Of a stretch of 39,812 nt of DNA, positions 6,759 to 27,000 are shown piece by piece. How positions within the stretch are numbered: position 1 is the stretch's first letter; the number at the start of each line of letters is the position of its first letter. The notes under the pieces are model-generated. The model made no database searches. It was given only the letters and a program-made list of their open reading frames with translations, and was not told the origin of the DNA. Source of the stretch: Christensenellaceae bacterium Phil1. Lineage in GTDB: Bacteria > Bacillota > Clostridia > Peptostreptococcales > Anaerovoracaceae. Both the position numbers and the translations under genes were made by a program. Where the stretch lies: assembly GCA_963648745.1 (NCBI GenBank), contig CAVJEY010000004.1, forward strand, positions 1-39,812, in the 5' to 3' direction.

Positions 6759-6784
6759 AAAGGCTCTCCTGTACGAGAGCCTTT
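6759..6784. terminator. Bidirectional terminator hairpin between the convergent esterase and rubrerythrin genes
   Basis: AAAGGCTCTC-CTGTAC-GAGAGCCTTT, a 10-bp stem flanked by A/T runs on both sides. Confidence 0.6.
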
Positions 6785-6802
6785 AAAATCATCCTGATCG
6801 TC

Positions 6803-7336: not shown

Positions 7337-7362
7337 TGCTATTTCTCCTTTTCTAAACCTGA

Positions 7363-7734
7363 CTATGCTTTCCATAATCCATGCAGATTGCAGTATTCGT
7401 ATACGGAAACGACCTCATCATCAGGGGTTACTGCAAATTCAGCCACGGGTTTCTGCCCCGGAGCAAGAATTTTTCTCTGGTTACCCTGCTTTGTTTCAAG
7501 CGCTATCCACTGAATATAGTGTTCTTCCAGCATAGGATGCTCTGCCGAACCTACGGTTACTGTAACCTTACCGTCTTTAACCTCATATACAGGTATGTGT
7601 TTTTCGCCTGCCGCATCGGTTGTGTTTGGAATCAGCTCCTCCATCTTCTGTCCGCAGCACATTACAGGCACTCCCCTGTTTTCTACAAAAGCTATAATAT
7701 TTCCGCAGTGTGAACATTTATAGAATTTCATCAT
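7363..7734 (-). CDS. dfx: Desulfoferrodoxin (2Fe superoxide reductase)
   Basis: Center I CxxC..CC (CSHCGN..MCCG). Center II ligand context ([25 protein letters not shown]). The ATG at 7734 is preceded by GGGAGG. Confidence 0.9.
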
Positions 7735-7783
7735 ATCATTTACCTCCCTGTAAATCACATCAATCTTTAATGTATTCATATAT

Positions 7784-7820
7784 TAGCATATGTTTTTTAA
7801 TTTTTCTGTTGCATATGCTA
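7784..7820. promoter_or_regulatory. Perfect 9-bp inverted repeat TAGCATATG-N19-CATATGCTA in the dfx/crp divergent intergenic region
   Basis: Read directly from the sequence. Candidate operator or hairpin. Confidence 0.35.
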
Positions 7821-7832
7821 CAGTTTTGCGAT

Positions 7833-7845
7833 ATATTATTAATAT
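7833..7845. promoter_or_regulatory. 13-bp perfect palindrome ATATTATTAATAT (PerR/Fur-box-like 6-1-6 element)
   Basis: Read directly. It lies between dfx/rbr and the Crp/Fnr gene. AT-rich palindromes can arise by chance. Confidence 0.3.
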
Positions 7846-7882
7846 GTTATATTCCCTGCAGATAATATTCAGGAGGTGATTT

Positions 7883-8512
7883 ATGAAATTTTTTGACGGT
7901 GTTTCTGTTGAGGATGTCAGGAGAATGATTGAATGCTTTGACACAGCACCTAAAAAATACAGACCCGGCGAAACCATAACAGAGCTTTCATATCAGCTGT
8001 CATCAATAGGTCTTGTGCTGTCGGGCAAAGCTCATCTTTACTGCATAGACTATGAAGGCAATGCGCAGACTATAGAATATTTCAAAAAAGATGATGTTTT
8101 CGGGGAGCTTTTCTGCCTGCCGGCAGGTACACTTGAATATATTGTCGAGGCTGACAGAGACTGCGAGGTTATGTTTATCCCCTACTCCACAATAACCTCA
8201 CCCTGCAGCAATCTGTGCAGCTGCCATATAGAGGTGATTCGCAATCTGTTCCTTATGGCCGCCAGAAAATCACAGGAGCTCGCCCTCAGGATAAGCTTCA
8301 TATCCAGAAAAACCACAAGGTCAAAGCTTATGACATATTTTGAATATATGTCCGATATGGCAGGCAGCAGCACTTTTGAAACTCATGTTTCACTATCAAA
8401 ACTGGCAGATTATCTGTGTGTTGACCGTACCAGCCTGATGCGTGAGCTGCGCCACCTCAAAGAAGAGGGAATTATAGATTCGGACAGGAGAAAAATAAGG
8501 CTGCTGCAGTAG
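7883..8512 (+). CDS. Crp/Fnr-family transcriptional regulator
   Basis: cNMP-binding-like N-terminal domain (FGELF) and a C-terminal HTH (SLSKLADYLCVDRTSLMRELRHLKEEGII). RBS is AGGAGGTGA. Confidence 0.85.
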   Translation: MKFFDGVSVEDVRRMIECFDTAPKKYRPGETITELSYQLSSIGLVLSGKAHLYCIDYEGNAQTIEYFKKDDVFGELFCLPAGTLEYIVEADRDCEVMFIPYSTITSPCSNLCSCHIEVIRNLFLMAARKSQELALRISFISRKTTRSKLMTYFEYMSDMAGSSTFETHVSLSKLADYLCVDRTSLMRELRHLKEEGIIDSDRRKIRLLQ

Positions 8513-8528
8513 CAAAGGAGGCTGACAC

Positions 8529-9026
8529 ATGAGAAGAAAAGACAGACAGATGCCGGAGGATTTTGCCCTTGGCATCATAGACAAATGTTCATTTGCACAG
8601 GTTGCCATGACAGACGAAAAAGGCAATCCCTACTGTGTGCCGCTTTCAATTGCAGGAGATGGGAGCTGCATATATTTTCACAGCGCCGCCGAGGGCACCA
8701 AAACAGATATTCTGAGGAAAAATCCAAAGGTTTATGTTAGCTGCGTCGGAGATGTTGTTCCTGCCACAGATAAGTTCACAACAGAGTTTGAGTCTGCTGC
8801 GTTTTGCGGCACAGCCTGTGAAGTTACAGACAGAGAAGAAAAAATCAAAGCGTTAAGGCTGATATGTGAGAAATATACACCTGCAAATCTTGACAGCTTT
8901 GAGGCTGCTATAAAAAGAAGCCTTGACCGCACTGCAGTATGGCGTATTTCCATAGACAGTATTACAGGCAAACGAAAAAAATATGATGAATCAGGAGAAG
9001 AAATGAAATTCGGGAGGATGAAGTAA
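8529..9026 (+). CDS. Pyridoxamine 5'-phosphate oxidase-like (FMN-binding split-barrel) family protein
   Basis: MRRKDRQM..FALGIIDKC..AQVAM..G.PYCVPLS is the typical N-terminus of this family. RBS is AAAGGAGG. Confidence 0.65.
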   Translation: MRRKDRQMPEDFALGIIDKCSFAQVAMTDEKGNPYCVPLSIAGDGSCIYFHSAAEGTKTDILRKNPKVYVSCVGDVVPATDKFTTEFESAAFCGTACEVTDREEKIKALRLICEKYTPANLDSFEAAIKRSLDRTAVWRISIDSITGKRKKYDESGEEMKFGRMK

Positions 9027-9688
9027 TGAAAAGAAGAATAATAGAAATCGACAGAGAAAAATGCAACGGCTGCGGTGCGTGCGCAGAAGCATGCCATGAG
9101 GGCGCCATCGCCATGATAGACGGCAAGGCTCAGCTCATAAAAGATGACTACTGTGACGGTCTCGGCGACTGTCTGCCTGTCTGTCCTACAGATGCCATAT
9201 CATTTGTGGAACGTGAAGCCGCACCTTACGATGAGGCTGCAGTAAAGGCAAGAATGGGTTCAGGCTGCCCTGGTCAGGCTTTGAGAGAAATACAGCATAC
9301 AAAAGAAAACAGCAGCATATCCGGAGAAAGCAGACTCAGACAGTGGCCGGTTCAGATAAAACTGGTGCCTGTTAACGCCCCATATTTTGACAATGCGGAT
9401 CTGCTGATTGCAGCTGACTGCACAGCCTTTGCCTACGGCGCATTTCACGATGAATTCATAAAAGACCGTATAACCCTGATAGGCTGTCCGAAGCTTGACG
9501 ATATTGACTATTCGGAAAAGCTTACCGCAATATTGAGTGAAAACAGCATCAGAAGCATTACGGTTGTAAGAATGGAAGTACCTTGCTGCGGCGGACTTCA
9601 GTACGCTGTCACAAATGCTCTGGCCAAAACAGGCAAGGATATACCGCTCAATGTTGTGACCGTAGGAATAGACGGCAAAATCAGATAG
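9026..9688 (+). CDS. 4Fe-4S dicluster domain protein with a conserved C-terminal Cys-containing domain
   Basis: CNGCGACAEACHEGA and CDGLGDCLPVCPTDA ferredoxin motifs. The start overlaps the upstream stop codon (TAATG). Confidence 0.75.
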   Translation: MKRRIIEIDREKCNGCGACAEACHEGAIAMIDGKAQLIKDDYCDGLGDCLPVCPTDAISFVEREAAPYDEAAVKARMGSGCPGQALREIQHTKENSSISGESRLRQWPVQIKLVPVNAPYFDNADLLIAADCTAFAYGAFHDEFIKDRITLIGCPKLDDIDYSEKLTAILSENSIRSITVVRMEVPCCGGLQYAVTNALAKTGKDIPLNVVTVGIDGKIR

Positions 9689-12369: not shown

Positions 12370-12897
12370 TTACAATGCAAATTTCAATCTCTCCACAATC
12401 AGCTTATAAACAAGCGGTATGCATATAATCTGAACTATAAGGATTGCGATACAGTTAGGGAGTCTGAGTATCACATAGGCCAGATAAGTGCCGTCTGCAC
12501 CGTACATAGGCCACAGGCACAGCGTTGTAAGAAACAGCTTGATTAAAAATACCGCAGCAGATGCAATAACTGTTCTTATTATCAGAGACCTGCCTGTAAG
12601 ATTCTTTCGGTAGAATACAAATCCGTATACCACACCTGCAAGCACCAGAGTTGCTGTTATTCCCGGATTGTATACTCCAAACGGGATAAGTATGCTCCCT
12701 GCAGTATCTGCAACGCCGTATGCTATGCCTGACCACATAGGGCCATAAAGCACTGCAACAATAAATATTGCAATGAAATCAGCGCTCAGATGGTAAACAG
12801 GCGTAGCGGGCACTATTCTGTTTAATACAAGGCACATTGCTGTCATCAGCGCTGTAACCACAAGTCTTGCCGTGCTGCTGCCAATAGCATGCTGCAT
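12370..12897 (-). CDS. folT: ECF-transporter S component, folate family
   Basis: 175-aa protein with about 5-6 TM segments. RBS is AAAGGAGG. It lies directly downstream of a THF riboswitch. Confidence 0.8.
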   Translation of the reverse strand: MQHAIGSSTARLVVTALMTAMCLVLNRIVPATPVYHLSADFIAIFIVAVLYGPMWSGIAYGVADTAGSILIPFGVYNPGITATLVLAGVVYGFVFYRKNLTGRSLIIRTVIASAAVFLIKLFLTTLCLWPMYGADGTYLAYVILRLPNCIAILIVQIICIPLVYKLIVERLKFAL

Positions 12898-12964: not shown

Positions 12965-13054
12965 AGTAGTGGATGCAATATTGTACCGCGGATTCCCTTC
13001 GTTTATGGACAACATCCCGTTCCATAACACTTAACGCACAATATTTACTCTACT
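12965..13054 (-). promoter_or_regulatory. THF (tetrahydrofolate, folT-motif) riboswitch aptamer
   Basis: The minus strand reads AGUAGAGUAAAUAUUGUGCGUUAAGUGUUAUGGAACGGGAUGUUGUCCAUAAACGAAGGGAAUCCGCGGUACAAUAUUGCAUCCACUACU. This matches the conserved blocks GCGUUAAGUG, GGGAUGU, ACGAAG, CGCGGU and UUGCAUCC of the THF-I aptamer as I remember it. A downstream helix (UUUCAC..GUGAAAGGAGG) can sequester the RBS. Confidence 0.85.
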
Positions 13055-13062
13055 TGACATCT

Positions 13063-13091
13063 ATGGTATCACAGATTTATTTTCTATTCAA
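13063..13091 (-). promoter_or_regulatory. Candidate promoter of the riboswitch-folT unit: -35 TTGAAT, 17-nt spacer, TG-extended -10 TACCAT
   Basis: Hexamers read on the minus strand. The -35 element overlaps the stop codon of the upstream permease gene. Confidence 0.4.
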
Positions 13092-13869
13092 GTCCTCTTT
13101 TCCTTAACATTCTGTTTTCCGCTATTGAGAATACGAATCTGTCTATTATAATTCCGACAATTATTATCACTATCATTACCGCCATTACCTGATTGATGTC
13201 GGCAAGGTCTCTTCCCAGCATCAGCACATAGCCAAGCCCCACAAAGGATGACATCACCTCACCCGACATCAGAGCTCTCCATGCAAATGACCACGACTGT
13301 CTCAGTCCCGATACAAACCCCGGAAGCGCTGCCGGAAGCACCACACGAAACAGTATGTCCCTCTGTTTTGCCCCCATCGTCCTTGCCACCTTTGTGTATA
13401 TGACAGGTATGCTTCTGATTGAATTTTCGATTGCAAGGGACACACTGAAAACAGAGCCCATAACAACTACAAATATTATAGCTTTCTCTGCAAGTCCGAA
13501 CCACAGTATCGCAAACGGCACCCAGCATATGCTCGGCAGCGTCTGTATGCCCATAAGCAGCGGCTTCAGATTTCTGTTGAGATATTTAACATATGTAATC
13601 AGCACACCCATTACGGCACCTGCCGCAAGAGCAATGGCAAATCCGATTACCGCCCTTTTCATGCTGAAGCCCACCGCTGCAAGAAGCGTACCCTTTTTTG
13701 CCATGCTGACAAGACTTGCAACAACTCCCGCAGGAGTCGGAAACGCATAGGATTTCCACCAGCCGAACACATCAGAACCAAAATACGCAGCCGCCTGCCA
13801 GACAGCTATAAGAGCTATAAAGAAGAAAACATCCTTTATGCTAAACTCTGTCATATTCCTCTTTTTCAA
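13084..13869 (-). CDS. ABC transporter permease, NitT/TauT (SsuC/TauC-like) family
   Basis: Six predicted TM segments and the BPD_transp_1-type loop motif (ARTMGAKQRDILFRVVLPAALP). The track start at 13869 is TTG with GAGGTG 7 nt upstream; the alternative ATG is at 13854. Confidence 0.85.
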   Translation of the reverse strand: MKKRNMTEFSIKDVFFFIALIAVWQAAAYFGSDVFGWWKSYAFPTPAGVVASLVSMAKKGTLLAAVGFSMKRAVIGFAIALAAGAVMGVLITYVKYLNRNLKPLLMGIQTLPSICWVPFAILWFGLAEKAIIFVVVMGSVFSVSLAIENSIRSIPVIYTKVARTMGAKQRDILFRVVLPAALPGFVSGLRQSWSFAWRALMSGEVMSSFVGLGYVLMLGRDLADINQVMAVMIVIIIVGIIIDRFVFSIAENRMLRKRGLE

Positions 13870-14611
13870 TCTTATCCACCTCTACTTTTAATCCGTCAAG
13901 CAAATGCTTCCGTATATCAACAAATTCTTCAGAATCAAGCTGCCTCGGCCTTGGCAGATCTATTTTCACTACGCTTTTGACAACGCCGGGTCTTTCTGCC
14001 AGTATGATTATCCTGTCTGCAAAATACAGAGCCTCCTCAACACTGTGAGTGACATATATTATAGTTCTCCCGGTTTCCTCCCAGATAGCCTCAAGCTCTG
14101 CCCTGAGCTTGTTTATTGTCTGCTTGTCAAGCGCCGAAAAAGGTTCGTCCATAAGCATTATCTTACTGTCCATGGTAAGCGCTCTTGCCAGAGCCGTGCG
14201 CTGCTTCATGCCTCCCGAAAGCTCGTGAACGGCATACTCTCTGAAATCCCACAGATGCACCATTTTGAGATACTTCTCCGCCCTTGTTTCCTGCTCATTC
14301 TTTGGCACTCCCGCAAGCTTCATACCAAACTTCACATTTTCCATGACATTGAGCCACGGATAGAGCGCAGGCTCCTGAAACATGACAACTCTGTCTGCTC
14401 CGGGACCTCTGACCTCCTTGTCATCAAGTATTATCTTTCCCGATGTGGGGGTTTCAAGTCCCGCTATGAGATTAAGCAGGGTGGACTTGCCGCAGCCTGA
14501 CGGTCCTACTATACATATAAATTCACCGTCTGATATTTCCATGTTTATATCCGATAATGCAGGCTCTGCCGCATTCTTAAAAGTCTTCGAAAGGCCTTCT
14601 GTTTTCAGCAT
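13841..14611 (-). CDS. ABC transporter ATP-binding protein (SsuB/TauB-like)
   Basis: Walker A GPSGCGKST, signature LSGGMKQR, Walker B IMLMDEPFS. Confidence 0.9.
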   Translation of the reverse strand: MLKTEGLSKTFKNAAEPALSDINMEISDGEFICIVGPSGCGKSTLLNLIAGLETPTSGKIILDDKEVRGPGADRVVMFQEPALYPWLNVMENVKFGMKLAGVPKNEQETRAEKYLKMVHLWDFREYAVHELSGGMKQRTALARALTMDSKIMLMDEPFSALDKQTINKLRAELEAIWEETGRTIIYVTHSVEEALYFADRIIILAERPGVVKSVVKIDLPRPRQLDSEEFVDIRKHLLDGLKVEVDKIEKEEYDRV

Positions 14612-14617
14612 TGTTTC

Positions 14618-15622
14618 TTACCTCTGTTCAAGTGATTTGAGAATACTTGTATCAACATAGCCTTCATCAGGCTCTGTTGCAATAAAGCCCTGTGAAACGC
14701 CTACCTCTGCAAATTCCTCAAGGGCGCCTTCTGCTATGTCGGCAGTTATATTAAGTCTTGCGAAAGCGCTGTCTATAACCGATGCCTCGTAAGCTTTGCC
14801 TGTAGCCTCCTCTATCTGCCCGCATATTATATCCGCAGCTTTTTCTTTCTCTGCGTTGATATACTCTGTCGCATCAAGATGAACCTTTACAAATGCTTCG
14901 ACGATTTCAGGGTTTGCCTCCATGAAATCTTTTCGTACAACCACAACAGCCGTAGGATAATTGCCTCCTGCCATAATCTCATCGTAATCAAGCACGATTC
15001 TGGCGCCGCATTTATCCTCCAGTATGCTTCCCCACGGCTCCGGCACTATTGCCGCACTTATGCTGCCGCTGTCAAACATGGTCTGCACATCCGCATTTTC
15101 AACCTCAACTATATCGACCGTACCGCCTTCCGAAACAGGTTTGAGCCCATACTCATCCAGCAGGTCAAGCAGTGACAGATGCTGGGTGTTGCCAAGCTGC
15201 GGCACCGAGACTTTTTTGCCGTCAAGGTCTGCAACCGATTCAATATCGGAGTCTGCGCTTTTCAGCAGCACAGCTCCCGCATCACAGGCATTTGCAATTA
15301 TAACGACATCACCATGAGATTTGACATTTGCGTTTATTGCGGGCACAGGTCCTATATATCCAAGATCTATCTCTCCCGCAAACAGAGCCTCCACCTCTGC
15401 AGGTCCTGCATTGAAAGCTGTCCATTTCACACTGTATTCATCTCCCAGAGCCTCTTCAAGCATCCCCCGGTCCTTGATGTAGAGTGCCTGCGCATGAGTT
15501 ATATTCGGAAAATACGCAACCCTCACCTCGTTTGAAGCCGCCTCGCCGCCTCCGCAGGAGCACAGCACACCTAAAGTCATTGCAATGCACAGAACAAGTG
15601 CAGTCAGTTTTTTCATTTTCAT
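14618..15622 (-). CDS. ABC substrate-binding lipoprotein, NMT1/SsuA/TauA-like
   Basis: Signal peptide plus lipobox (LCSCGG). The AYFPNITHAQAL motif is typical of the sulfonate/nitrate/taurine SBP family. Confidence 0.8.
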   Translation of the reverse strand: MKMKKLTALVLCIAMTLGVLCSCGGGEAASNEVRVAYFPNITHAQALYIKDRGMLEEALGDEYSVKWTAFNAGPAEVEALFAGEIDLGYIGPVPAINANVKSHGDVVIIANACDAGAVLLKSADSDIESVADLDGKKVSVPQLGNTQHLSLLDLLDEYGLKPVSEGGTVDIVEVENADVQTMFDSGSISAAIVPEPWGSILEDKCGARIVLDYDEIMAGGNYPTAVVVVRKDFMEANPEIVEAFVKVHLDATEYINAEKEKAADIICGQIEEATGKAYEASVIDSAFARLNITADIAEGALEEFAEVGVSQGFIATEPDEGYVDTSILKSLEQR

Positions 15623-15630
15623 TTCCTCCG

Positions 15631-17454
15631 CTACATATATTTCTCAAGCTGAGCCATAACAGTATCAGCCGCCTCAGCCACAGATAAACCTTCGGTATCT
15701 ACAGTAATATCAGGCGATACAGGCACTTCATATTCACTTGATATTCCTGTGAAATCAGGAATTTCTCCTGATCTCGCTTTTTTGTAAAGACCTTTTACAT
15801 CTCTTTTTTCGCAGGCCTCAAGAGATGTGCTTACATACACTTCTATGAAGCTTTCACCGATTATGTCAGCCGCATTTTTGCGGTCGGCCTCATACGGTGA
15901 TATGAATGAGGTCAGGACTATAAGACCGGCATCATTCATCAGCTTTGAAACCTCTGCAATACGCCTGATGTTTTCCACTCTGTCAGCCTCAGTAAAGCCA
16001 AGGTCCCTGTTAAGGCCCATTCTCACATTGTCACCGTCAAGCAGCATTGTGTGCCTGCCGCGGGCCGCGAGGCGTTTTTCCAACTCGTTTGCAAGAGTTG
16101 ATTTGCCTGAACCCGAAAGCCCCGTAAACCACAGAGTAAACGGTTTCTGTCCAAGTCCCGCAGCTCTTGTTTCCCTTGTTATGTCCATATTGTGCCATGT
16201 CAGATTGTCTGCCCTTCTGAGAGTATGCCTTACAACTCCGCAGGCGGATGTCATATGAGTCACAACATCTATAAGGATGAAGCTTCCCATCGTCCTGTTT
16301 TCATCAAAAGGCGCAAGCACTGTTTTGTCCGATACCGATATGTCGCAGCAGGCAATTTCATTTTTAACAAGAGTGTCAGCCTCTAAGTGAAGCCCGCTGT
16401 TCACATCAACTTTGTATTTAATGTTCATTACCGAAGCTGGAAGCGTCCTGGTTCCCAGCTTGAGCAGATAGTTTCTGCCTGCAACAAGCCTGTCCTCATC
16501 CATCCACAGAATATCTGCCGTAAACATATTGCTTACCTGCAGGTGCTCTCCCGATGACAGAACGCAGCCTCTTGAAACATCTATCTCCCTGTCAAGCTGC
16601 AGCGATACAGGCTGGCCCGCTATGGCCTCCTCTGCATCTTTTCCCGCCGCAATTATCCTTCTTACCTTTGCTTTTTCACCGCTTGGAAGTGAGGTTACCT
16701 CATCTCCCTCCGCAATTTTACCTGCTTCTATCTGACCCTGAAATCCTCTGAATGTATGATCTGGTCTTGACACTCTCTGCACAGGCATAATAAATGCATC
16801 GCCAGCCTCCTCTAAGGAAACATCTATGTTTTCGAGGTATTCCAGCAGTGGCGCTCCCGTGTACCAGCTCATATTCTCGGATTTTCCGGTTATATTGTCG
16901 CCTATGGTTGCAGATACAGGTATAATCTGCAGGCTCTCATAGGAGAACTCGGCAAAGAACTCGTTTATCACTCCCGCAATTTCATCAAATTTCTCTCTGC
17001 TGTAATCTATAAGGTCCATTTTGTTTACTGCAATTACGAAGTGCCGTATTCCCATCAGAGAGCATATGCGCGCGTGCCTTCTGGTCTGCACCAGCACTCC
17101 CTGCGAGGCATCGACAAGTATTACCGCAAGATCCGCAAATGACGCGCCTACTGCCATATTTCTTGTATATTCCTCGTGACCGGGCGTGTCCGCAACTATG
17201 AAGCTTCTTTTTTCGGTTGTAAAATATCTGTATGCGACATCTATTGTGATGCCCTGCTCGCGTTCGGCCATAAGCCCGTCAAGCAGCAGAGAATAATCTA
17301 TGCCGCCGCCTGCGCTTCCCACCCTGCTGTCAAGTTCAAGTGCTCTTTTCTGGTCTGTGAATATCAGCTTGGCATCATAGAGCATATGACCTATAAGGGT
17401 GGATTTCCCGTCGTCCACACTGCCGCAGGTTATGAATTTAAGTAAATCTGCCAT
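15631..17454 (-). CDS. cysNC: Bifunctional sulfate adenylyltransferase subunit 1 / adenylylsulfate (APS) kinase (CysN-CysC fusion)
   Basis: N-terminal GTPase G1 motif GSVDDGKST plus DTPGH. The C-terminal APS kinase P-loop is GLSGSGKST. The start overlaps the cysD stop codon by 1 nt. Confidence 0.92.
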   Translation of the reverse strand: MADLLKFITCGSVDDGKSTLIGHMLYDAKLIFTDQKRALELDSRVGSAGGGIDYSLLLDGLMAEREQGITIDVAYRYFTTEKRSFIVADTPGHEEYTRNMAVGASFADLAVILVDASQGVLVQTRRHARICSLMGIRHFVIAVNKMDLIDYSREKFDEIAGVINEFFAEFSYESLQIIPVSATIGDNITGKSENMSWYTGAPLLEYLENIDVSLEEAGDAFIMPVQRVSRPDHTFRGFQGQIEAGKIAEGDEVTSLPSGEKAKVRRIIAAGKDAEEAIAGQPVSLQLDREIDVSRGCVLSSGEHLQVSNMFTADILWMDEDRLVAGRNYLLKLGTRTLPASVMNIKYKVDVNSGLHLEADTLVKNEIACCDISVSDKTVLAPFDENRTMGSFILIDVVTHMTSACGVVRHTLRRADNLTWHNMDITRETRAAGLGQKPFTLWFTGLSGSGKSTLANELEKRLAARGRHTMLLDGDNVRMGLNRDLGFTEADRVENIRRIAEVSKLMNDAGLIVLTSFISPYEADRKNAADIIGESFIEVYVSTSLEACEKRDVKGLYKKARSGEIPDFTGISSEYEVPVSPDITVDTEGLSVAEAADTVMAQLEKYM

Positions 17455-18359
17455 CAGAAATATCCCTCCCTTTTGCGTCTTTCCATGCTGCCTGCCGCCT
17501 CGTGATCTATAACTCTGCTGGTTCTCTCCGAGTTTACGGCTCCTAATGTCTCCTCGATTATCTTATCGAGGGTATCGGCATCAGACTCGCATCCGCCTGT
17601 CAGCGGATAGCAGCCTAAAGTTCTAAAACGGACTTTTTTTGTTACTATTTTATCGTCAGGACCGAGATATTTCCTGATACGGTCATCATCTATCATAATT
17701 ATGTTGCCGTCTTTTTCGACCACCGGTCTTTCTTTGGCAAAATAAAGCGGCACTATATCTATGTTTTCTCTTCTTATGTACTGCCATATGTCTTTTTCAG
17801 TCCAGTTCGAAAGAGGGAACACTCTGATACTTTCACCTTTGTTTATGCTTGTGTTAAACAGCTTCCACATCTCCGGGCGCTGATTTTTGGGATCCCAACC
17901 GTGAGATTTGTTTCTGAAAGAGAATATTCTCTCCTTGGCTCTGGATTTTTCCTCATCTCTCCTGCCGCCGCCGAATGCCGCTGTAAATCCGTATCTGTCA
18001 AGAGCGTCTTTGAGAGCCTGTGTTTTCATAATGTCGGTATATGCCGCCCCGTGCTCAAACGGATTGATGCCTCTTGCGATGCCGTCCTCGTTTCTGTAGA
18101 CAATCATCTCAATTCCAAGCTCCGCTGCCCTGCGGTCACGAAATTCTGTCATTTCTCTGAATTTCCATGTAGTGTCGATGTGCATAAAAGGAAACGGCGG
18201 CTTTTCGGGATAAAAAGCTTTCATTGCAATATGAAGCATTACCGAGCTGTCTTTTCCTATCGAGTAGAGCATTACGGGTTTTTCGCACTCTACCGCAACC
18301 TCTCTCATTATGTATATGGCTTCCGCCTCCAGTTTATCAAGATGTGTTAATTGTGACAT
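17454..18359 (-). CDS. cysD: Sulfate adenylyltransferase subunit 2
   Basis: 301 aa with the PAPS-reductase-fold ATP-PPase motif ([12 protein letters not shown]). Classical CysD length and termini. Confidence 0.92.
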
Positions 18360-19483
18360 ATCTGTTCCTCTATTTCATATCCGAAGTAATCAAAATAAAA
18401 TTTAAGCTCCCTGTTTATTTTTGCTTTGAGCGAAGGACTCAGAACAAGCCTGTTTGGTCTGTACTCCTTCTGTGTGTCCTGATAGCTTTCAAAATACGGC
18501 TCTGCCCTGTCAAATCCGTCAAGGTGAAGCTGCTCATATATATATTTCATGTTTTCAACCGGAGTTTTAACAAAGCTCTCATGCCTTATCAGCACAAGAT
18601 CGCCCTCCGGAATATTTTCGATATCCCTGAGCATTTTAGTATTCATTTTTTTGAACACCTCTATGGCTGCGTTTTCAATCATCTCTCCGTCTGCCATTCC
18701 CTCAAGACTCATAAGCTCCATCATTGACGTCAGAGCTTTGATTACCGACGGCACTATCTTGTACGGATTCCTGCTTATAAGTATGAATTTGCTTCCGGGA
18801 TATTTCTCTGTCAGTTTATCCACATTGCAGGAATTGTCCGGGCTTTTTAATACAAGCTGTCTGCCGTGTTTGACGAGAGTTGTTTTTTTGAGAAGAAAAT
18901 CATATTTGCGCTCCCACTCTCTCTGCAGCTTATCGCTCATTTCATCGGTATACAGCGTTGACAGATACTCTCTGTAGTTTTTGGGAAATACCATCATATG
19001 ATTAAACGAGTGCGTGGTGTATGTGGACAGAGCGTACAGATCCTCCATGGGAAGATCAAGTCTGTACTCCATATTGTCCATGGGTCTTGCATCCACCAGA
19101 ATTTTTTCCTGCGCATATTTCAGAAGCCAGCCAAGAAGTATGCTGTTGTTAAATGTAACAGTGCTTACAGGGTCAAGCCATCCAAACTGCGGATCTCTTG
19201 ACATTGTGTACTGCACATTGGTGGTTCCAGACCTCCATATGCCTATTATATGTACCGGCGGCTTTTTTATCTTTGTCAGTTTTACCGGTATATACATTAT
19301 GAGAAGCTCCAGCAGCGCAAACGGGAAAAGAATCAGACTCATAACGGTTATATATATAACCTGCGGGATTTTTCCCGGCGATATATCCCTGATATTTCTG
19401 AAAAGCAGCCTTAGCCATATGTCAAATCTGGCCGCCGCAAGGTAATGTGCTGAATTGATTAACGGTTTTTTCTTTTTTGTCAT
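18347..19483 (-). CDS. PAPS-dependent sulfotransferase-family protein with an N-terminal hydrophobic segment
   Basis: 5'-PSB motif IWRSGTT and a 3'-PB-like RNPYKIVPS. The ATG at 19483 is preceded by AAAGGAAG (the track start at 19504 is TTG). The 3' end overlaps cysD by 13 nt. Confidence 0.75.
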
Positions 19484-19553
19484 ACTTACTTCCTTTTCTG
19501 CCAATAACCCACGCTCTATTATATTCCCGTAAAATAAACTGAAAATAAACTAA

Positions 19554-19588
19554 CCACCCTGTCCGGCGTATTCTGCCCGGCAGAGTGG
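19554..19588 (-). terminator. Imperfect GC-rich hairpin followed by a T-rich tract, between sulP and the sulfotransferase gene
   Basis: On the minus strand, CCACTCTGCCGGG..CCGGACAGGGTGG is followed by TTAGTTTATTTTCAGTTTATTTT. A TATAAT box (19518-19523) lies downstream of it. Confidence 0.3.
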
Positions 19589-19611
19589 TCAGCTGCTGTA
19601 TATTGATATCT

Positions 19612-21255
19612 TTACATATGCTCCTGCTGTGCAATCACTATTGCCTGTTCTGCACTCTGGAACACGTACTGCTCACCTATGATATCTATGAGTCCTCCTC
19701 TTCTCATTGCGTCAAGCACCTTAGGCTGCACGCTTGTAAGGTACACCTCTGTACCGTTTGCCTCAAGCTCTCTGACAAGATCTATCATGGCCTCTATTCC
19801 CGAAAGATCTATCATAGGCACTCCTCTCATTGAAAGTATCAGAGCCTCGGCACTTTCCTGTTTTCTCAGCTGTCTGACAAGTTTGTCAACCACCGCAAAA
19901 AATATGGTTCCGGTAAGGTATGCAATTCTGACCTTGCCCGATATCGAAGGCAGATGAACCCCGACCTCATCCAGCCTGTCTTTGTCTATTTCACTTACCG
20001 ATATATCGATGTCCGTAAGCTTCACGATGATAAGGAACGATGAGAACGCAACCCCTATTATTATTGCCTGGGTTAAATCCAGCACCACCGTTGCAATCAT
20101 CGTTATAAAGAATTTGAGCATTCCCGATTTGAATTTGTGGTCAAATATGAAATGTATGTTTTTCCAGTCGTTCATTCTCCACGCGGTGACAATAAGTATT
20201 CCCGCCAGCGCCGAAAGCGGCACCTCAGACATTACAGGGGAAAGCACAAACATTGAAAGCAGCAGAATCACAGCATGGAATATGCCTGTTATTCTGGTCT
20301 GGCATCCCGATTTGATGGCAACGCTGGTTCTTGCTATGGCCGCTGTTGCAGGTATGCCGCCAAAAAAAGGTATAATCATATTGCCTATGCCCTGCGCAAT
20401 CAGTTCTCTGTCCGCATTAAGCTCTTCTTTTTTCATCCTGCCGGCTGATGCTCCGCAAAGCAGGCTTTCTATCATACCCAGCGCCGCAATGGAAAGCGCA
20501 GGAACAAACAGATCCCAGAACTGTGCCGTATTGATACTTCCCGGTGAAAGCCTTTCGTCAAGAAACAGGCTCTTTGGTATCTGGCCTACTGTTTCGACCT
20601 CAGGATTCAAGAAATGACATACAATAAGAACTAATATAAGGGCTGCAAGAGATGACGGTATTCTGTCATTGAGCTTCTTTGGCCATACAATCATTATGAC
20701 TATTACCGCTGCGCCGATTACAACAGCCTCCCAGTTGGGGGCAAAACCGTTTGTGAAATATGAAATCACCCTGGTTATTGCAAGATCGCCCGAAGATGTG
20801 ACCCCGAAGAAATTATCAAGCTGTCCCAGCGCGATTATGAGAGCTATGCCTGATGTGAATCCTGTAATTACAGATGACGGAATATAGTAGATAACTCTGC
20901 CGAGTTTAAGAATACCGGCTGCAATCAGAATTATTCCTGCCATAAAACAGGCCGTAAGTATTCCCTGCATACCGTATTTTGAAGCTAAAGTGACAAGTAT
21001 GGCTGTCATTGCGCCTGTAGGCCCCGATATCTGAAATGAAGCCCCCGAAAAAACACTTATTATAATGCCGCCGATTATGGCTGTGACAAGGCCTGCCGCT
21101 GCAGTTGCCCCGGAGCTGACACCAAATGCAAGAGCCAGCGGAAGCGCTACGGCTGCAACCGTGATACCTGACATTAAATCCTTTGAGAGCTTCCTGCCAT
21201 TATAGCCCGAAAACTCTTCTCTTAAATCCGAAACATAATCTTTAACAAGATGCAT
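19612..21255 (-). CDS. SulP-family anion (sulfate) permease with a C-terminal STAS domain
   Basis: 547 aa, polytopic, followed by a STAS-like C-terminus (ALILSMRGVPMIDLSGIEAM..LEANGTEVYLTSVQPKV). RBS is GGGAGG. Confidence 0.9.
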   Translation of the reverse strand: MHLVKDYVSDLREEFSGYNGRKLSKDLMSGITVAAVALPLALAFGVSSGATAAAGLVTAIIGGIIISVFSGASFQISGPTGAMTAILVTLASKYGMQGILTACFMAGIILIAAGILKLGRVIYYIPSSVITGFTSGIALIIALGQLDNFFGVTSSGDLAITRVISYFTNGFAPNWEAVVIGAAVIVIMIVWPKKLNDRIPSSLAALILVLIVCHFLNPEVETVGQIPKSLFLDERLSPGSINTAQFWDLFVPALSIAALGMIESLLCGASAGRMKKEELNADRELIAQGIGNMIIPFFGGIPATAAIARTSVAIKSGCQTRITGIFHAVILLLSMFVLSPVMSEVPLSALAGILIVTAWRMNDWKNIHFIFDHKFKSGMLKFFITMIATVVLDLTQAIIIGVAFSSFLIIVKLTDIDISVSEIDKDRLDEVGVHLPSISGKVRIAYLTGTIFFAVVDKLVRQLRKQESAEALILSMRGVPMIDLSGIEAMIDLVRELEANGTEVYLTSVQPKVLDAMRRGGLIDIIGEQYVFQSAEQAIVIAQQEHM

Positions 21256-21365: not shown

Positions 21366-21424
21366 GCCAATCGTCGGAAAAATTATCAGCCAATCGTCGG
21401 AAAAATATTTGGCCAATCGTCGGA
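21366..21424. repeat. Three direct copies of GCCAATCGTCGGA with an exact 23-bp period (21366, 21389, 21412)
   Basis: Read directly. The first two copies are identical over 18 nt (GCCAATCGTCGGAAAAAT). They lie between divergent sulP and the AAA ATPase gene. Confidence 0.9.
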
Positions 21425-21495
21425 TTTTTGTTGTATATTTTGATTTTCAGAGTATAATATAGGTAAATACTTAAGTAGGAAGCAGGTATTTTCAA

Positions 21496-22752
21496 ATGAC
21501 AGACTATAAACATAGAGTAGCCGATGACATTTTAATCAGGAAACTTGAAGGCAAAGGTGCCGTGCTTATTGAAGGTCCTAAATGGTGCGGCAAAACAACT
21601 ACTGCGGAGCAGGTTGCAGCAAGCGTCCTATATATGGACAATCCCGAAAAGAAACAGCAGAACATAGCAATGGCAGAACTTAATCCTTCCAGGCTGCTGG
21701 CAGGTAACGTACCGCGGCTTATTGATGAATGGCAGCTTGCTCCTAAACTGTGGGATGCAATACGTTTTCAGGCTGATCATCGCGGTCTCACAGGTCAGTT
21801 CATACTTACAGGTTCTTCAGTGCCTGCTGATACTTCTGAAATAACTCATTCAGGCACCGGCCGGTTCACATGGCTTACAATGAGACCGATGAGCCTGTAC
21901 GAGTCGGAAGACTCCAGCGGTGATGTGAGTCTAAAGTCACTGTTTGACAGCCATACAGATATTGACGGGCAGTCGCACCTTGATATTGAACGGCTTGCAT
22001 TTCTTACATGCAGAGGCGGCTGGCCGCAGTCAATCAGAATGCGTGATGAAACAGCACTGGATCAGGCGTTTGATTACTATGATGCCGTAGTTCACTCCGA
22101 CATAAACCGCGCTGATAATATCGTCAAAAATCCCGAACGCGTAAAACGTCTGATGCGTTCATATGCGCGCAACCAGGGCGGACAGATACCCAACACTGTA
22201 ATTGCTCAGGATATCGCTGCCAATAAAGAAACTGCTGCACTGTATATCAGTGCTCTGAAAAAAATATTCGTTATAGAGGATATGCCCGCATGGAACCCTA
22301 ATCTGCGTTCTAAAACAGCAATACGTTCATCGGATACACGTTATTATACAGACCCTTCAATTGCTGCTGCCGCACTTGGTATCGGTCCTCAGGATCTGTT
22401 AGATGATCTTAATACTTTCGGGTTTTTATTTGAGACATTATGCATCAGAGATCTCAGGGTTTTTGCAGATGCTCTTAACGGTACTGTCTATCACTATCGT
22501 GACAAAAGCGGGCTTGAATGTGATGCCGTGGTTCACCTTAGAAACGGTTCCTACGGCCTTATAGAAATAAAGCTTGGCGGAGAACGTCTGATTGAGGAGG
22601 GTGCTTCAAACCTCACAGCCCTGTGCAGAAAACTTGACACCGATAAAATGAAAAAGCCTTCTTTTCTTATGGTTCTTACCGGTACCGGAGATTACGCATA
22701 CAGGCGCAGTGACGGCATCCTGATTGTACCCATAGGCTGTCTGAAAGACTAG
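21496..22752 (+). CDS. AAA-family ATPase with a DUF4143 C-terminal domain (AAA_14/DUF4143 type)
   Basis: Walker A GPKWCGKTT. The C-terminal LECDAVVHL..GLIEIKLG is the PD-(D/E)XK-like DUF4143 signature. Confidence 0.8.
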   Translation: MTDYKHRVADDILIRKLEGKGAVLIEGPKWCGKTTTAEQVAASVLYMDNPEKKQQNIAMAELNPSRLLAGNVPRLIDEWQLAPKLWDAIRFQADHRGLTGQFILTGSSVPADTSEITHSGTGRFTWLTMRPMSLYESEDSSGDVSLKSLFDSHTDIDGQSHLDIERLAFLTCRGGWPQSIRMRDETALDQAFDYYDAVVHSDINRADNIVKNPERVKRLMRSYARNQGGQIPNTVIAQDIAANKETAALYISALKKIFVIEDMPAWNPNLRSKTAIRSSDTRYYTDPSIAAAALGIGPQDLLDDLNTFGFLFETLCIRDLRVFADALNGTVYHYRDKSGLECDAVVHLRNGSYGLIEIKLGGERLIEEGASNLTALCRKLDTDKMKKPSFLMVLTGTGDYAYRRSDGILIVPIGCLKD

Positions 22753-22753
22753 A

Positions 22754-24001
22754 TTATACTTTAACTTCCGAGACAGGAGGCTTTTGCAGCATTACAGCCT
22801 CCTGCTCAAGTTTGCAGTCATTTATCAGCATATATTCCACAGCTTCACTGCATATCTCAGCATATTTTCTGTCATCTTCATCCTTATACTTTTCAAGCAG
22901 ATTTTCAAGCCTTTTTCTATCGCTTTGAGTAAGAGGTTTTGCAAACTCTCTGAACCTTTCCAAAGTATCTTTTCCCATATAAACAGGTTTAAAACCTATC
23001 CCGGTCTTTTCTCTTAAGTGATTGACAATATAGAAGCCTCCCGCATCAATATCACCAAAATGAAAATATGAACAGCCCGGATTATCATCATACACCTTTT
23101 TCAGGAAATTTCTTCTCGTCCTGTTATGAAACCCGCCCAGGTATATTACAAAATACTCACTGTTATTAAAGTCATGAAAGCTTGTAAGGTTTTCTACTGT
23201 TATAACCTTCCTGCCTGTCACGGCAACGCTGCTTAAATCTTTTAAGGTTTCAGAGGAAAGAGCCAGATCTCCCCTTATATTTTTCAGGTCAATATGCTGC
23301 CCTCCGAGAACAATTTCAGCGCAGCCTTTAATGTACACATATGTAGGAGTATTTACTATCCCGTTTTCTTCAAGAATATGTTCTTTTTCTTCAGATTCAC
23401 CATACTGATACAGCATGGACTGAACTTTACTTCTAAGTTCCTCGGCGGTTTTGGAATCATGAAAAAGCTTAATAGAAAAATCCCTTATATAGGTTTCTTC
23501 CTCATTTTCAAGCACTGCAGCAGCCATTTCAAGAAACTGCCGGTATTTTTCAATATCTCCATCATAAAATTCAACATTTCTGTTGCGTGCAATTCTTTTT
23601 TGCTGTTCTTTAAGATACAGAGTAAGGCTCTGATATCTGCTGTCTGTTCTGTCAGAGAGAATCCTGTCTATAACCGAAAGCAGCGACTCCTGTTTCTGCC
23701 TCCTCGGAACCCGTCCAAGCATACTGTAGCATTCACTGATTTTTTCATTTGCAAGAACAGCTTTTTTTATGGTTCCGTTTTTTTCGTATTCCAGCCGGAT
23801 AACGCCCGCTTCTTCAATTTCCAGAAGAGAATCATTTATCTCCCTGAAAAGATCATATTCGGAGTCATCTGCATATTGGGGGAATTTTTTTGCTACGATT
23901 ACCGCAAAGTTCTGCGACACCCTGTTTTCCCCAAGATAGCTTCTGCTCCTTTCATATTTGTTCAAAAGTTCATTCAGTACTGTTTTCTGATACCTGTCCA
24001 T
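22754..24001 (-). CDS. jetD: Wadjet JetD (Toprim/Topo VI-A-like nuclease subunit)
   Basis: C-terminal Toprim motifs VITVENLTSF (Glu) and FHFGDIDAGGF (DxD). Fourth gene after the SMC-like jetC. Confidence 0.85.
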   Translation of the reverse strand: MDRYQKTVLNELLNKYERSRSYLGENRVSQNFAVIVAKKFPQYADDSEYDLFREINDSLLEIEEAGVIRLEYEKNGTIKKAVLANEKISECYSMLGRVPRRQKQESLLSVIDRILSDRTDSRYQSLTLYLKEQQKRIARNRNVEFYDGDIEKYRQFLEMAAAVLENEEETYIRDFSIKLFHDSKTAEELRSKVQSMLYQYGESEEKEHILEENGIVNTPTYVYIKGCAEIVLGGQHIDLKNIRGDLALSSETLKDLSSVAVTGRKVITVENLTSFHDFNNSEYFVIYLGGFHNRTRRNFLKKVYDDNPGCSYFHFGDIDAGGFYIVNHLREKTGIGFKPVYMGKDTLERFREFAKPLTQSDRKRLENLLEKYKDEDDRKYAEICSEAVEYMLINDCKLEQEAVMLQKPPVSEVKV

Positions 24002-24014
24002 TTCGTATCCCCTG

Positions 24015-27000
24015 TTACAGATCGTATTCTTCTACAATACTTGCTCTGCCTGCTCTTATTGCTGTCAGTATTGTACCTACCTGTTCACCGATAATTTCGA
24101 TTTTAGCCGGTGGTGTCGCAAGTATAACCTGCAGATCCAGGCTGTTGAAAAACTCCATCATTGCTTTTATCCTTTCATCATCCATTTTATCAAACGCCTC
24201 ATCAAGCAGCATCAGTCTCACACTGTTTCCGAATCTGTAAAGCTGATAAAAGGACGCTGCTATTGCAACATAATACGGCACCTGGGTTTCGCTTCCGCTT
24301 TTTTCTCCGTATATATCGGAGAACTTCTGAAGAGAGCCGTCTCTTTTTCTTATTTCAATATCATAGTCCAGATATGATCTGTAATCCGTATATTCGGCTA
24401 CAATTCTGTCACCTTTGTCATCTCTGGTCATAAGTTTATCAAAGAGATCGGAAATCTCTTCTCTGTATTCGGCTTCAAAAGCTGCAGTCCAGAGGCTGTT
24501 GCCCTCCTGGTTGTTCTCAGATGTAATCATTTTATACAAGCCTTCTTTCTGCTTGTCAAAAGTGATTTTGAAATGATAGCTGTCATCCCCGTAATATATA
24601 TTATCAAGTGCCTTGTTGAGATTGCGGAATTCGTTTCTGGCAGCTTCGATATGCTCTTTCATTTTGGAAAGAAAATCACTTCTGAAAATTTCCTCACACT
24701 CTTCTTTTGCAGTTTTGAGTTTTTCTTCGTATTTTACAAGCTCAACCGATTTCAGTTTCTGTGCAGCCGAGATATATTCGTCAATTCCTTCTGTTCCCGA
24801 AGTAAAGTCGCAGCTGTAGTCATAATTAAATGTATACTGCTGTGCTTTGAGAGAATCTGTAAGCTGCATACGCTCGTTCTGAAACTGACTTCTCTGAGGC
24901 GTGAAATTTGATATTATTGTCTCCGGCATCTTTTTCCTGCGGTTATCCGAATATTTTTTCCCGGCCTCTTCATATGCCTTCTCATCATTATCCGCAAGGG
25001 CTCTGAGACTGTCTCTTTCGCTGTCATTTCTCGCTTTATATTCTGCAAGCTGCTTCTGCCCGGCTTCAATATCCCACGATGTTTTGCTTCTGTTTTCTCT
25101 GAATTTTTCCAGAGCGGCATTTACATCTTCCAGTTCTTTTTCTATCGCCTGCTTCTTTATTTCAAGCTCCAGGAGGGATGGATCTTTTTTTGCCTCCTTA
25201 AGCTCCGCTTTAATATTCGCCAGAGATTTTGTCTCTCTTGCCAGATCTGCAGGAGCATTCATATAAAGCTGTATAAGCTCAGGATTGACATCTGCCTCAA
25301 GCTTTATTATCTCATCATATATTATGCTGTTTTCTCTGAGTCTGCTTCGCTGTGCATTTTTTTCCTGCAGTTCTGCTTTTATATGCTCTATCTGCATCCT
25401 GAAAGCATTCTGACCTATATACGGATTCCTATATAACTTCGGATCCATATTTCTTACAACATAGCCCTGATAAAGCATACAGTCCGCCGTAACAGCAATC
25501 CTGTGCTCTTTAAGCTGTTCAACCCTGTCACAGCGCATTACTCTTCCCAGCAGATAGTCAATATATGCTTTTGCATATCTGTTTTCACTTTTTACAACAT
25601 ATGCCAGAGATTTATTGTCCGTCTCCTGACTGACTGTCAGCTTTCCTGTATTGATTATGCCCGCCGAATGTATGTTTTTTCTGTTTCTGTGGTAGCACTG
25701 CAGTGCTGCGTCATAGTATTCCGGCTCTACAACAAGATAAAATTTCTGTGTGTTAAGATAGCCCTCAACAGCATTTCTCCACGTTTCATCTGTTATTTCA
25801 AGAAGCTCTGAAAGTATATAAACTTTTGATGAGATTCCCCTTGCGCTGAATTCTTTTTCTATGTATTCTTTTAATTTTGCCGTGTTTTCAGGATATGTAA
25901 GTATCTGCTTGTGAAGTCTCCTGTTTTTCTCCTGAAGAATCTGAATCTGACTGTCAAGTTCCTTTAATCCGACAGCCAGTTTTGCTCTTTCTTCATGAAG
26001 TGACATCATCTCCTGTTTTGAAAAGAGTTTCAGAGCCTCAACGGTTTCATATTTCCTGTCATCATAATGCTCGGATACAAGTGTATTAAGCTGCTCTGCC
26101 GACACCGGAGTTCTGCCTGCCTCTTTAAGCTTTTTGAGGAATTTTTCCAGGGCTGCCACCTGAACCTTGAGCTGCCCTGCCCGCACCTGCGCTTCTTTTA
26201 TGCTGCTTTCTGCTGCTGCAGCCTTATGCTGCAGTTCCTCTAAAAGTCTGCTTGCTTTATTTTCATGGATAGATACATTTACAGCCAGCAGTTTCTCTGA
26301 AGCAGCTGCGCTTTCTTTTTCAAGCTGCGTGATTTTAATATTAAGACCTGAAATCATCTGCTCTTTTGCAATTATATCTTTTTCGATGGCAGCAAGTTTT
26401 TCTCTGAGCATATCTATTCCCGCTATACGCAAAAGAAAATCATTGACTTTAATATCATAATCTTTTGCTTCTATCCGGTCATAGGTATTTATTATTCCTT
26501 CAAGGCATTCAAGCTGCCTGTTGCTTTTTATGAGAAGCTCTTCAAGCTCGCTCAGGGTTTCAATATTTTCTCTAAGCGCCGCAACATCTATTTTTTCTTC
26601 GGAAAGTACAAATTTATTTATAAATTCCTTAACATTATCCATAGGTTTGAATGCAAGAGATTTGGGAATTATGTCAAAGAATCTGTCATCGAGATTTCCC
26701 ATTCTTCTCTTGAATCTGTCTCTTGCAGCATAATTCTGATCTATATACCTGATGCGTCTGCCTCTTACCCTGAATTCTTCTGCAAGAGCAGCTTTTCCAT
26801 GCACCACAAATGACATATCCTCAAGCCTGCACTCCTCAACATACCACCTGGTTACAACCCTGCTTTCTTCATCAGGTGAAAGCATATGCACACCCATTAC
26901 AAAATATTTTCCTGTCTTTTCCTCAAAAAACTCCAGCGCCACATTGGCAGGAACTGCATTTTTCCTGAGATATGTCTCTCCGACATTACCTGTTTTACAG

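Follow-up and report, generated by a model that had tools for sequence, protein, structure and literature searches.

What does a gut bacterium that makes 3'-phosphoadenosine-5'-phosphosulfate (PAPS) do with it: reduce it for its own sulfur supply, or hand its sulfo group on to another molecule? This question is raised by a block of genes on contig CAVJEY010000004.1 of Christensenellaceae bacterium Phil1 (assembly GCA_963648745.1), of which positions 1 to 39,812 were analysed (the window, 39.8 kb). At 13084-21255, seven co-directional open reading frames (ORFs) on the minus strand encode an anion permease, a sulfotransferase, the PAPS-synthesis proteins CysD and CysN-CysC, and the three components of an ATP-binding cassette (ABC) importer. 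On balance we consider it probable that this block is a self-contained sulfation module, in which PAPS would be made on the spot, an Stf-like sulfotransferase would place the sulfo group on a hydrophobic acceptor, and the ABC importer would serve the module.

The gene order given by the original prediction (sulP, sulfotransferase, cysD, cysN-cysC, substrate-binding protein, ATPase, permease) was recovered over the same span for all seven ORFs. Listed in the direction of transcription, these are:

19612-21255, minus strand: SulP/SLC26-family anion permease with a C-terminal STAS domain (PF00916, 255.5 bits; PF01740, 62.8 bits)
18347-19483, minus strand: Stf-like PAPS-dependent sulfotransferase (Sulfotransfer_3), predicted, 378 amino acids (aa) (PF13469, 77.1 bits, cutoff 27)
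17454-18359, minus strand: CysD, small subunit of sulfate adenylyltransferase (NF009214, 500.5 bits, cutoff 413)
15631-17454, minus strand: CysN-CysC fusion, GTPase subunit of ATP sulfurylase joined to adenosine 5'-phosphosulfate (APS) kinase (NF004035, 845.2 bits, cutoff 715; PF01583, 221.8 bits)
14618-15622, minus strand: lipoprotein substrate-binding protein (SBP) of the SsuA (aliphatic sulfonate) family, NitT/TauT type (TIGR01728 SsuA_fam, 231.1 bits, cutoff 163.5)
13841-14611, minus strand: ABC ATPase, NitT/TauT type (PF00005, 120 bits)
13084-13854 (ATG start) or 13084-13869 (TTG start), minus strand: ABC permease, NitT/TauT type, last gene of the operon (PF00528, 72 bits)

The sulfotransferase and its PAPS-synthesis operon

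Judged from its motifs and its predicted fold, the 378-aa protein is an Stf-like PAPS-dependent sulfotransferase whose cofactor motifs are intact. The PF13469 match spans residues 83-331, and both motifs that had been picked out beforehand are present: the 5'-phosphosulfate-binding motif RSGTT at residues 84-88, with W83 before it, and the 3'-phosphate-binding-like motif RNPYKIVPS at residues 238-246. Across 28 aligned homologues G81, R84, G86, T87, R238, P240 and S246 are invariant, as is the glutamate of the PxE motif (E147), and the cofactor motifs align with their equivalents in the solved structures 2z6v and 2zq5. Structure prediction, which had been suggested as a check, returned a sulfotransferase fold (AlphaFold2, mean predicted local distance difference test score 91.9, predicted TM-score 0.90), and all 17 Foldseek matches in the PDB with E <= 1e-3 are sulfotransferases. 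The best of them are Stf9 (2z6v, TM-score 0.66) and Stf1 (2zq5, TM-score 0.62), which are also the best PDB matches in the profile search (E = 3e-24 and 1.8e-20, respectively). The sulfotransferase domains of CurM and of olefin synthase (4gbm, 4gox) come next by structure and profile, and tyrosylprotein sulfotransferases rank after Stf9, Stf1 and CurM, with TM-scores of 0.41-0.45 versus 0.62-0.66 for the Stf proteins. The N-terminal hydrophobic segment that had also been noticed covers residues ~42-67 (19-residue Kyte-Doolittle mean 2.37). The length of 378 aa corresponds to an ATG start with an AAGGAAG ribosome-binding site; the mechanically called ORF, which begins at the TTG at 19504, would yield 385 aa.

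The motifs of the PAPS-synthesis proteins are likewise intact in translation, namely the PP-loop SIGKDS of CysD and, in the CysN-CysC fusion, GSVDDGKST, DTPGH and NKMD together with the kinase P-loop GLSGSGKST. The SulP-STAS protein is presumed to import the sulfate; its nearest solved structures are 6ki1 ("low affinity sulfate transporter") and other SLC26 transporters, and it scores 329.3 bits with the sulP subfamily model TIGR00815 (cutoff 380.45). As for the enzymes that would draw PAPS into assimilation, Pfam scans of the window, which covered the listed ORFs of at least 120 aa lying outside longer annotated genes, bear out the earlier remark that no PAPS/APS reductase or sulfite reductase is to be seen there, the only PF01507 match being CysD. 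Among the same ORFs there were no ssuD/ssuE or tauD desulfonation genes, and no cytochrome P450 or other hydroxylase.

The genes are closely packed. The overlaps reported for the sulfotransferase and cysD (13 nt) and for cysD and cysNC (1 nt) are exact, and the remaining junctions of the operon are as tight, with 8 nt between cysNC and the SBP gene, 6 nt between the latter and the ATPase gene, and an overlap of 14 nt between ATPase and permease genes. Between sulP and the sulfotransferase gene lies a spacer of 128 nt. The following elements were found in this spacer and upstream of sulP:

19529-19596, minus strand: hairpin with U-tract resembling an intrinsic terminator, 3' of sulP (-36.3 kcal/mol, z = -3.72, 0 of 200 shuffles equally stable)
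19518-19545, minus strand: promoter-like TTTTCA-16-TATAAT of the six-gene operon (10 of 12 consensus positions)
21366-21434, no strand assigned: 23-bp repeat in three tandem copies, all containing the 13-mer GCCAATCGTCGGA unchanged, at 110-180 nt upstream of sulP

Because the 128-nt spacer thus holds both a conserved terminator-like hairpin and a promoter-like site, we read sulP as a transcription unit of its own and the other six genes as one tight operon headed by the sulfotransferase. What had been described as a seven-gene locus therefore keeps its common direction but not its unity, falling into one plus six genes. In relatives the sequence of the hairpin drifts while its pairing is retained, and the promoter-like stretch with the 5' untranslated region shows a single substitution, in the spacer, across six aligned relatives. 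The repeats are a candidate operator of the sulP promoter: the 13-mer has 3 matches versus 0.04 expected by chance, and 11 related loci have one or two copies of the repeat in the corresponding place upstream of sulP, whichever gene is the upstream neighbour. At the gathering threshold Rfam placed no riboswitch ahead of the sulfation genes. Its sole match is a tetrahydrofolate riboswitch downstream (RF01831, 81 bits, 12965-13054, minus strand), which starts 29 nt past the stop codon of the ABC permease gene and belongs to the next gene, an energy-coupling factor transporter S-component at 12370-12897 (minus strand) that is folate-type in appearance.

Linkage of sulfotransferase and PAPS genes in relatives

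Is the association of these genes more than an accident of one genome? More than 10 independent contigs from the human gut carry the seven-gene block in identical order, which is beyond chance, and the block stays constant while the defence genes that lie upstream of sulP differ from contig to contig. Beyond this block, a sulfotransferase gene followed directly by cysD and cysNC was found in at least 12 further Clostridia lineages, although their sulfotransferases are only 32-57% identical to that of the window (loci L004, L007, L008, L011/L093, L012, L014, L015, L018, L089-L092, L094 and L095).

The PAPS genes at these loci differ in origin. CysD is 90% identical to that of the window in L089-L092 (Anaerovoracaceae) and 78% identical in L007, whereas CysD and CysNC of L004, L008, L011/L093, L012, L014, L015 and L018 are only 36-38% identical to those of the window (tblastn; L094 and L095 have Pfam annotation only and stand outside this comparison). 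Going by these identities, two unrelated CysD/CysNC lineages are linked to one sulfotransferase family. The anion carrier adjoining the module varies as well, being SulP in the window, TauE in L093 and L094, ChrA in L007 and BT_0412 in Bacteroides. In none of the Pfam-annotated relative loci was a second PAPS_reduct gene, or a NIR_SIR gene, found within ~10 kb.

The recurrence of the sulfotransferase-cysD-cysNC triad in such surroundings, with no reductase nearby, supports what was at the core of the original prediction, that PAPS is made here for a dedicated and possibly membrane-associated sulfotransferase and not for assimilation. From the arrangement of these genes we infer that PAPS would be spent on sulfation.

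In six lineages an orthologous pair of an OmpR-family response regulator (45-49% identity) and a HAMP histidine kinase adjoins the triad (L004, L007, L008, L011/L093, L089-L091 and L094). By tblastn, this two-component system of the relatives was not found in the window.

The importer, the acceptor and the competing explanations

What, then, would the ABC importer carry? Its SBP has TauA (6ssy) and SsuA (2x26) as nearest PDB entries, and its residues G73, G91 and T146 align with Gly61, Gly79 and Thr132 of TauA, which coordinate the sulfonate (the equivalent of Gln30 falls outside the alignment). The amine-binding residues Glu106 and Asp205 of TauA are replaced by Gly116 and Ala225. A taurine importer was ruled out, as these amine ligands are not conserved and the TauA equivalog model gives 94 bits against a cutoff of 304. 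The other components are less specific: the best NCBIfam models of the ATPase (SaoA, TauB and NtrCD) all stay below cutoff, and the SsuB and SsuC equivalogs score 170.7 bits (cutoff 395) and 110.1 bits (cutoff 347). The "Sao" names, which in NCBIfam refer to a selenoprotein/organometallic transport system, were set aside as uninformative, the scores being far below cutoff.

More is to be learned from the company the importer keeps. Window-type cysD-cysNC lies directly upstream of genes for SBP, ATPase and permease in seven loci (L096, L108, L117, L118, L130, L162 and L173), and there the neighbours of the cassette are never an Stf-like enzyme; instead they are a ~380-aa family, an ASST-type gene or radical-SAM/SPASM genes. 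The ~380-aa family, which sits between cysNC and the SsuA-like SBP, has no Pfam family and carries the motifs HIGxPKTGT and YLRRQDxxxxS. It occurs at:

L096, 3323-5641: ~380-aa HIGxPKTGT family
L118, 8582-9706: ~380-aa HIGxPKTGT family
L130, 3180-4319: ~380-aa HIGxPKTGT family
L162, 2663-3811: ~380-aa HIGxPKTGT family

On the strength of the two motifs these proteins are putative sulfotransferases only; profile-profile and PDB profile searches gave no significant sulfotransferase match. In L108 an ASST-type arylsulfotransferase (5243-7243; PF05935, E = 8e-46) overlaps cysD, in L173 the radical-SAM/SPASM genes precede the cysD-cysNC-ABC cassette, and L096 also carries a CysQ-like phosphatase. 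The ASST family is described as PAPS-independent, and finding a member joined to PAPS-synthesis genes in L108 was unexpected.

Because cysD-cysNC-SBP-ATPase-permease recurs with such differing sulfotransferase-type neighbours, the importer would be tied to the supply of PAPS or to a shared sulfo-compound. It had been thought that the importer might deliver either the acceptor or a sulfonate. The sulfonate-type family holds, in an SsuA-like and not a TauA-like form; delivery of the acceptor does not sit well with a cassette that accompanies other sulfotransferase-type neighbours, and the importer seems, from this pattern of gene neighbours, to serve the PAPS/sulfation module generally rather than to provide one enzyme-specific acceptor.

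For the acceptor itself the clues come from relatives. A CAT-fold acyltransferase (weak PF00198 match) lies alongside the module in six lineages, with 50-69% identity. The fullest set of neighbours is that of L093 (4363-16018 of JAEDDG010000019.1, Oscillospiraceae MAG026), which begins with MarR, an OmpR-type response regulator, a kinase, an acyl carrier protein (ACP), the Stf-like sulfotransferase, cysD and cysNC, and continues after cysNC with TauE, a serine-palmitoyltransferase (SPT)-like protein, a KdsR-like reductase and a CAT-like acyltransferase; the SPT-like protein reaches 525 bits with NF047600 (cutoff 640) and the KdsR-like one 235 bits (cutoff 400). A pair of SPT-like and short-chain dehydrogenase/reductase genes also stands beside a homologue of the sulfotransferase in a Thermotogae metagenome-assembled genome (MAG) and in a Thermoplasmatales MAG (L036 and L024). 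Loci of the L093 type are candidate clusters for a sulfated sphingolipid-like lipid. Because the relatives have these acyltransferase, ACP, SPT-like and KdsR-like neighbours, and because the enzyme has a hydrophobic N-terminal helix, a lipid-type alcohol is favoured as acceptor, and a hydroxy-fatty-acyl compound, which also has its analogy in characterised enzymes, would be an example of our best guess.

Put together, the module may work as follows. The SulP-STAS permease, transcribed separately, would presumably let sulfate into the cell. CysD and the CysN domain would then turn it into APS, and the fused CysC domain would phosphorylate APS to PAPS. The translationally coupled Stf-like enzyme would, at the membrane or close to it, move the sulfo group of PAPS onto a hydroxyl of a hydrophobic acceptor, most likely an alcohol of hydroxy-fatty-acyl or other lipid type. 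Finally, the co-transcribed SsuA-type ABC importer would take up an anionic sulfo-compound, or possibly sulfate itself.

Several points weigh against this proposal. The SulP protein scores below the cutoff of the sulfate-permease subfamily, and its closest equivalog models, DauA and BicA, are below cutoff as well. The reductase scan took in the window and the flanks of the relatives, and cysH or a sulfite reductase gene may sit elsewhere in the genome. The hydrophobic N-terminal helices may belong to a soluble fold, given that Stf9 and Stf1, both with long N-terminal regions, are soluble crystal structures. SBP homologues with 49-61% identity occur widely across Lachnospiraceae and other Clostridia, and 44 of the 76 loci with such a homologue adjoin a LacI-type regulator, with no PAPS genes and nothing sulfur-related beside them, which points to a role of the importer family that is independent of sulfation too. 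Lastly, the lipid acceptor is deduced from relatives whose sulfotransferases are 32-57% identical and from characterised enzymes of uncompared identity, and by tblastn none of the ACP, SPT-like, KdsR-like and acyltransferase genes was found in the window.

Other readings give the same genes a different sense. One goes further in the same direction and joins three elements, a sulfated lipid (hydroxy-fatty-acyl or sphingoid/ceramide-like), a modular five-gene "PAPS supply cassette" and a NitT/TauT-family ABC system acting as a hitherto unrecognised feeder of sulfate or organosulfate; the cassette would be combined by gut Clostridia with Stf-like enzymes, with the ~380-aa HIGxPKTGT proteins and even with ASST-type enzymes. 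This joint reading is possible, but we hold it only tentatively.

Less probable than this is that a host or dietary molecule (a steroid, bile acid, phenolic or hydroxylated sulfonate) is delivered by the ABC importer and then sulfated, which would make the locus the Firmicutes counterpart of the Bacteroides thetaiotaomicron sulfotransferase BtSULT. The BtSULT cluster does follow a like logic, its sulfotransferase being accompanied by PAPS genes and an anion importer (PMC9417993), cultured gut bacteria do make sulfated bile acids, phenols and fatty acids (PMC13449962), and the importer is co-transcribed with the sulfotransferase. However, SsuA-type NitT/TauT SBPs bind small anionic sulfonates and not sterols, and the sulfonate positions are kept here; moreover, the same cassette accompanies unrelated sulfotransferase-type genes, and more distant homologues of the sulfotransferase are without such an importer but have lipid-biosynthesis neighbours. 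We regard this explanation as unlikely.

Slightly more doubtful still is an acceptor in the form of a cell-envelope glycan or peptide, such as a sulfated polysaccharide of the wall or a peptide of the RiPP class (made by ribosomes and then modified after translation). Tyrosylprotein sulfotransferases are indeed structural neighbours after Stf9, Stf1 and CurM, but their matches are far weaker than those of the Stf proteins; a sortase follows the module in L089-L091 and radical-SAM/SPASM genes come before the cassette in L173, yet neither in the window nor in the annotated relatives were glycosyltransferase, polysaccharide-export or precursor-peptide genes found adjoining the enzyme, and its recurrent partners are acyltransferase, ACP and SPT-like genes.

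Least probable of all, and in our view improbable outright, is ordinary assimilatory activation, in which a sulfur-acquisition regulon would feed reductases encoded elsewhere and the sulfotransferase would be a side user or passenger: sulfur-starvation regulons (cys and ssu of Escherichia coli) classically include a sulfate permease, CysDNC and SsuABC-type importers, the SBP is of the SsuA family and the reductase scan had the limits just given, but assimilation is hard to invoke because two independent PAPS-gene lineages are joined to one enzyme family and the annotated flanks (~10 kb) of a triad that is kept across distant Clostridia contain no reductase, and it fares no better with a sulfotransferase that heads the operon and shares 13 nt with cysD, or with the failure of the window scans to find ssuD/ssuE and tauD.

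Genomic setting and comparison with known systems

The self-contained sulfation module thus remains the reading that we prefer, and its host belongs to a common but uncultured gut lineage. Of the genomes matched, bacterium G02651-L1 (96%) and uncultured Clostridiales bacterium UMGS973 (92%) come closest, and the named members of the CysD and sulfotransferase clusters are all MAGs labelled Eubacteriales, Anaerovoracaceae or Clostridiales. In the human gut one CysD variant (P0165) alone is found on 392 contigs, and the 90% cluster of the sulfotransferase has 340 members. Eubacterium ramulus was considered as the source and ruled out on the grounds of these closest genomes and cluster members; its name does not occur among the matches or clusters. 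Sequencing runs in which this DNA turns up are metagenome contigs with no more than 45% of its words, and the RNA runs under the same label are libraries unrelated to it.

The rest of the window is of a different kind. Beside sulP lies a defence island (21496-38078) with a PDC-S01/DUF4143 ATPase, a type I Wadjet system JetABCD (22754-29232), a GajB-like UvrD helicase, RhuM, Fic, a PDC-S02/YhcG nuclease, a type IV restriction enzyme (34798-37671) and a NUDIX protein; its content is variable between strains, with McrBC in L083 for example. Two overlapping ORFs on the plus strand (5125-5574 and 5508-6743, covering profile positions 4-89 and 106-500) are the halves of a split carboxylesterase (PF00135), to be put down to a frameshift, a pseudogene or an assembly error. 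Oxygen-defence genes at 6803-9688 (rubrerythrin, desulfoferrodoxin, a Crp-type regulator, a PNPOx-like protein and a 4Fe-4S protein) and a Mn-catalase near the end of the window (38840-39439) fit a strict anaerobe.

How does the module compare with systems of known function? By profile and fold its enzyme is closest to the mycobacterial Stf1 and Stf9, which are of similar length (~380-410 aa), although identity in the structural alignment is only 16-18% and the mycobacterial genes, unlike those described here, are not in an operon with cysDNC. The sulfotransferase domains of CurM and olefin synthase sulfate a beta-hydroxyacyl thioester, a chemistry that resembles the 3-hydroxy-C16 activity of the E. 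ramulus enzyme ErSULT discussed below; they sit, however, in polyketide synthase megasynthases, where sulfation provides the leaving group for a decarboxylative elimination, whereas the window has no thioesterase or polyketide synthase. In rhizobia NodP and NodQ, a dedicated set of CysD and CysN-CysC paralogues, supply PAPS to the pathway-specific sulfotransferase NodH; that system differs in its lipo-chitooligosaccharide acceptor, in the family of its sulfotransferase and in having no transporter cassette. Another mycobacterial enzyme, Stf3 (Rv2267c), sulfates hydroxylated menaquinone-9 in the synthesis of sulfomenaquinone (PMC7404182). Stf3 thus acts on the hydroxyl of a long lipid, though no partner like the hydroxylase cyp128 was found among the scanned ORFs of the window.

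The importer resembles SsuABC and TauABC of E. coli (PMC6906117) in that its SBP passes the SsuA_fam cutoff and keeps the sulfonate-holding Gly, Gly and Thr, and in its NitT/TauT-type ATPase and permease. It departs from Ssu and Tau in the replacement of Glu106 and Asp205 of TauA, in SsuB and SsuC scores far below cutoff and in the desulfonation genes, of which none was found; moreover, it is embedded in a PAPS operon, an arrangement not described for Ssu or Tau.

Close in setting is ErSULT of E. ramulus ATCC 29099, a Sulfotransfer_3 enzyme with Stf1 as nearest PDB entry, which sulfates 3- and 16-hydroxyhexadecanoic acid (PMC13449962). The window enzyme, too, is a Sulfotransfer_3 protein from gut Clostridia whose nearest solved structure is a mycobacterial Stf, a likeness by description and not by sequence comparison. 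IMG gives ErSULT the number EC 2.8.2.40, and the same name, "omega-hydroxy-beta-dihydromenaquinone-9 sulfotransferase", is given by JGI to a 28%-identical member of the window's family (P0074). The two differ in organism, that of the window being known from MAGs only, and a PAPS/ABC neighbourhood is not described for ErSULT in PMC13449962.

A close parallel in gene content is the cholesterol-sulfation cluster BT_0411-BT_0416 of B. thetaiotaomicron, where BtSULT lies beside PAPS-synthesis genes and a presumed sulfate importer (PMC9417993); the Bacteroides precedent that the original prediction had cited is real. As in that cluster, the sulfotransferase of the window adjoins cysD, cysN, cysC and an anion importer, the latter being of another family (SulP here), and both sulfotransferases come under Pfam Sulfotransfer_3 (for BtSULT as listed in PMC13449962). 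Unlike it, the window belongs to a different phylum and has an enzyme of the Stf-like clade, a fused CysN-CysC, a SulP-STAS carrier and a co-transcribed SsuA-type importer. The best Bacteroidota match to its sulfotransferase family (P0091) is only ~25% identical.

Genes are just now being linked to the sulfated metabolites of the microbiome, cholesterol sulfate and sulfated hydroxy fatty acids among them. To our knowledge, only a Bacteroides cluster and a single E. ramulus enzyme have been assigned so far, ErSULT being the sole characterised one from gut Firmicutes. The locus described here is a candidate from a prevalent uncultured gut lineage, with importer, PAPS synthesis and transferase in one complete and compact unit. 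Its comparison with relatives in Firmicutes, Thermotogae and Thermoplasmatota ties the Stf-like family to genes of the sphingolipid and acyl-lipid kind, and the recurrent cysD-cysNC-ABC cassette offers a testable lead on how anaerobes acquire and spend activated sulfate. Taken together, the concept is already known from the Bacteroides sulfation cluster and the characterised Firmicutes sulfotransferase; what is new here is an Stf-like enzyme coupled to CysD and CysN-CysC, with a separate SulP and an embedded NitT/TauT importer, in a prevalent lineage of the gut that has so far escaped culture.

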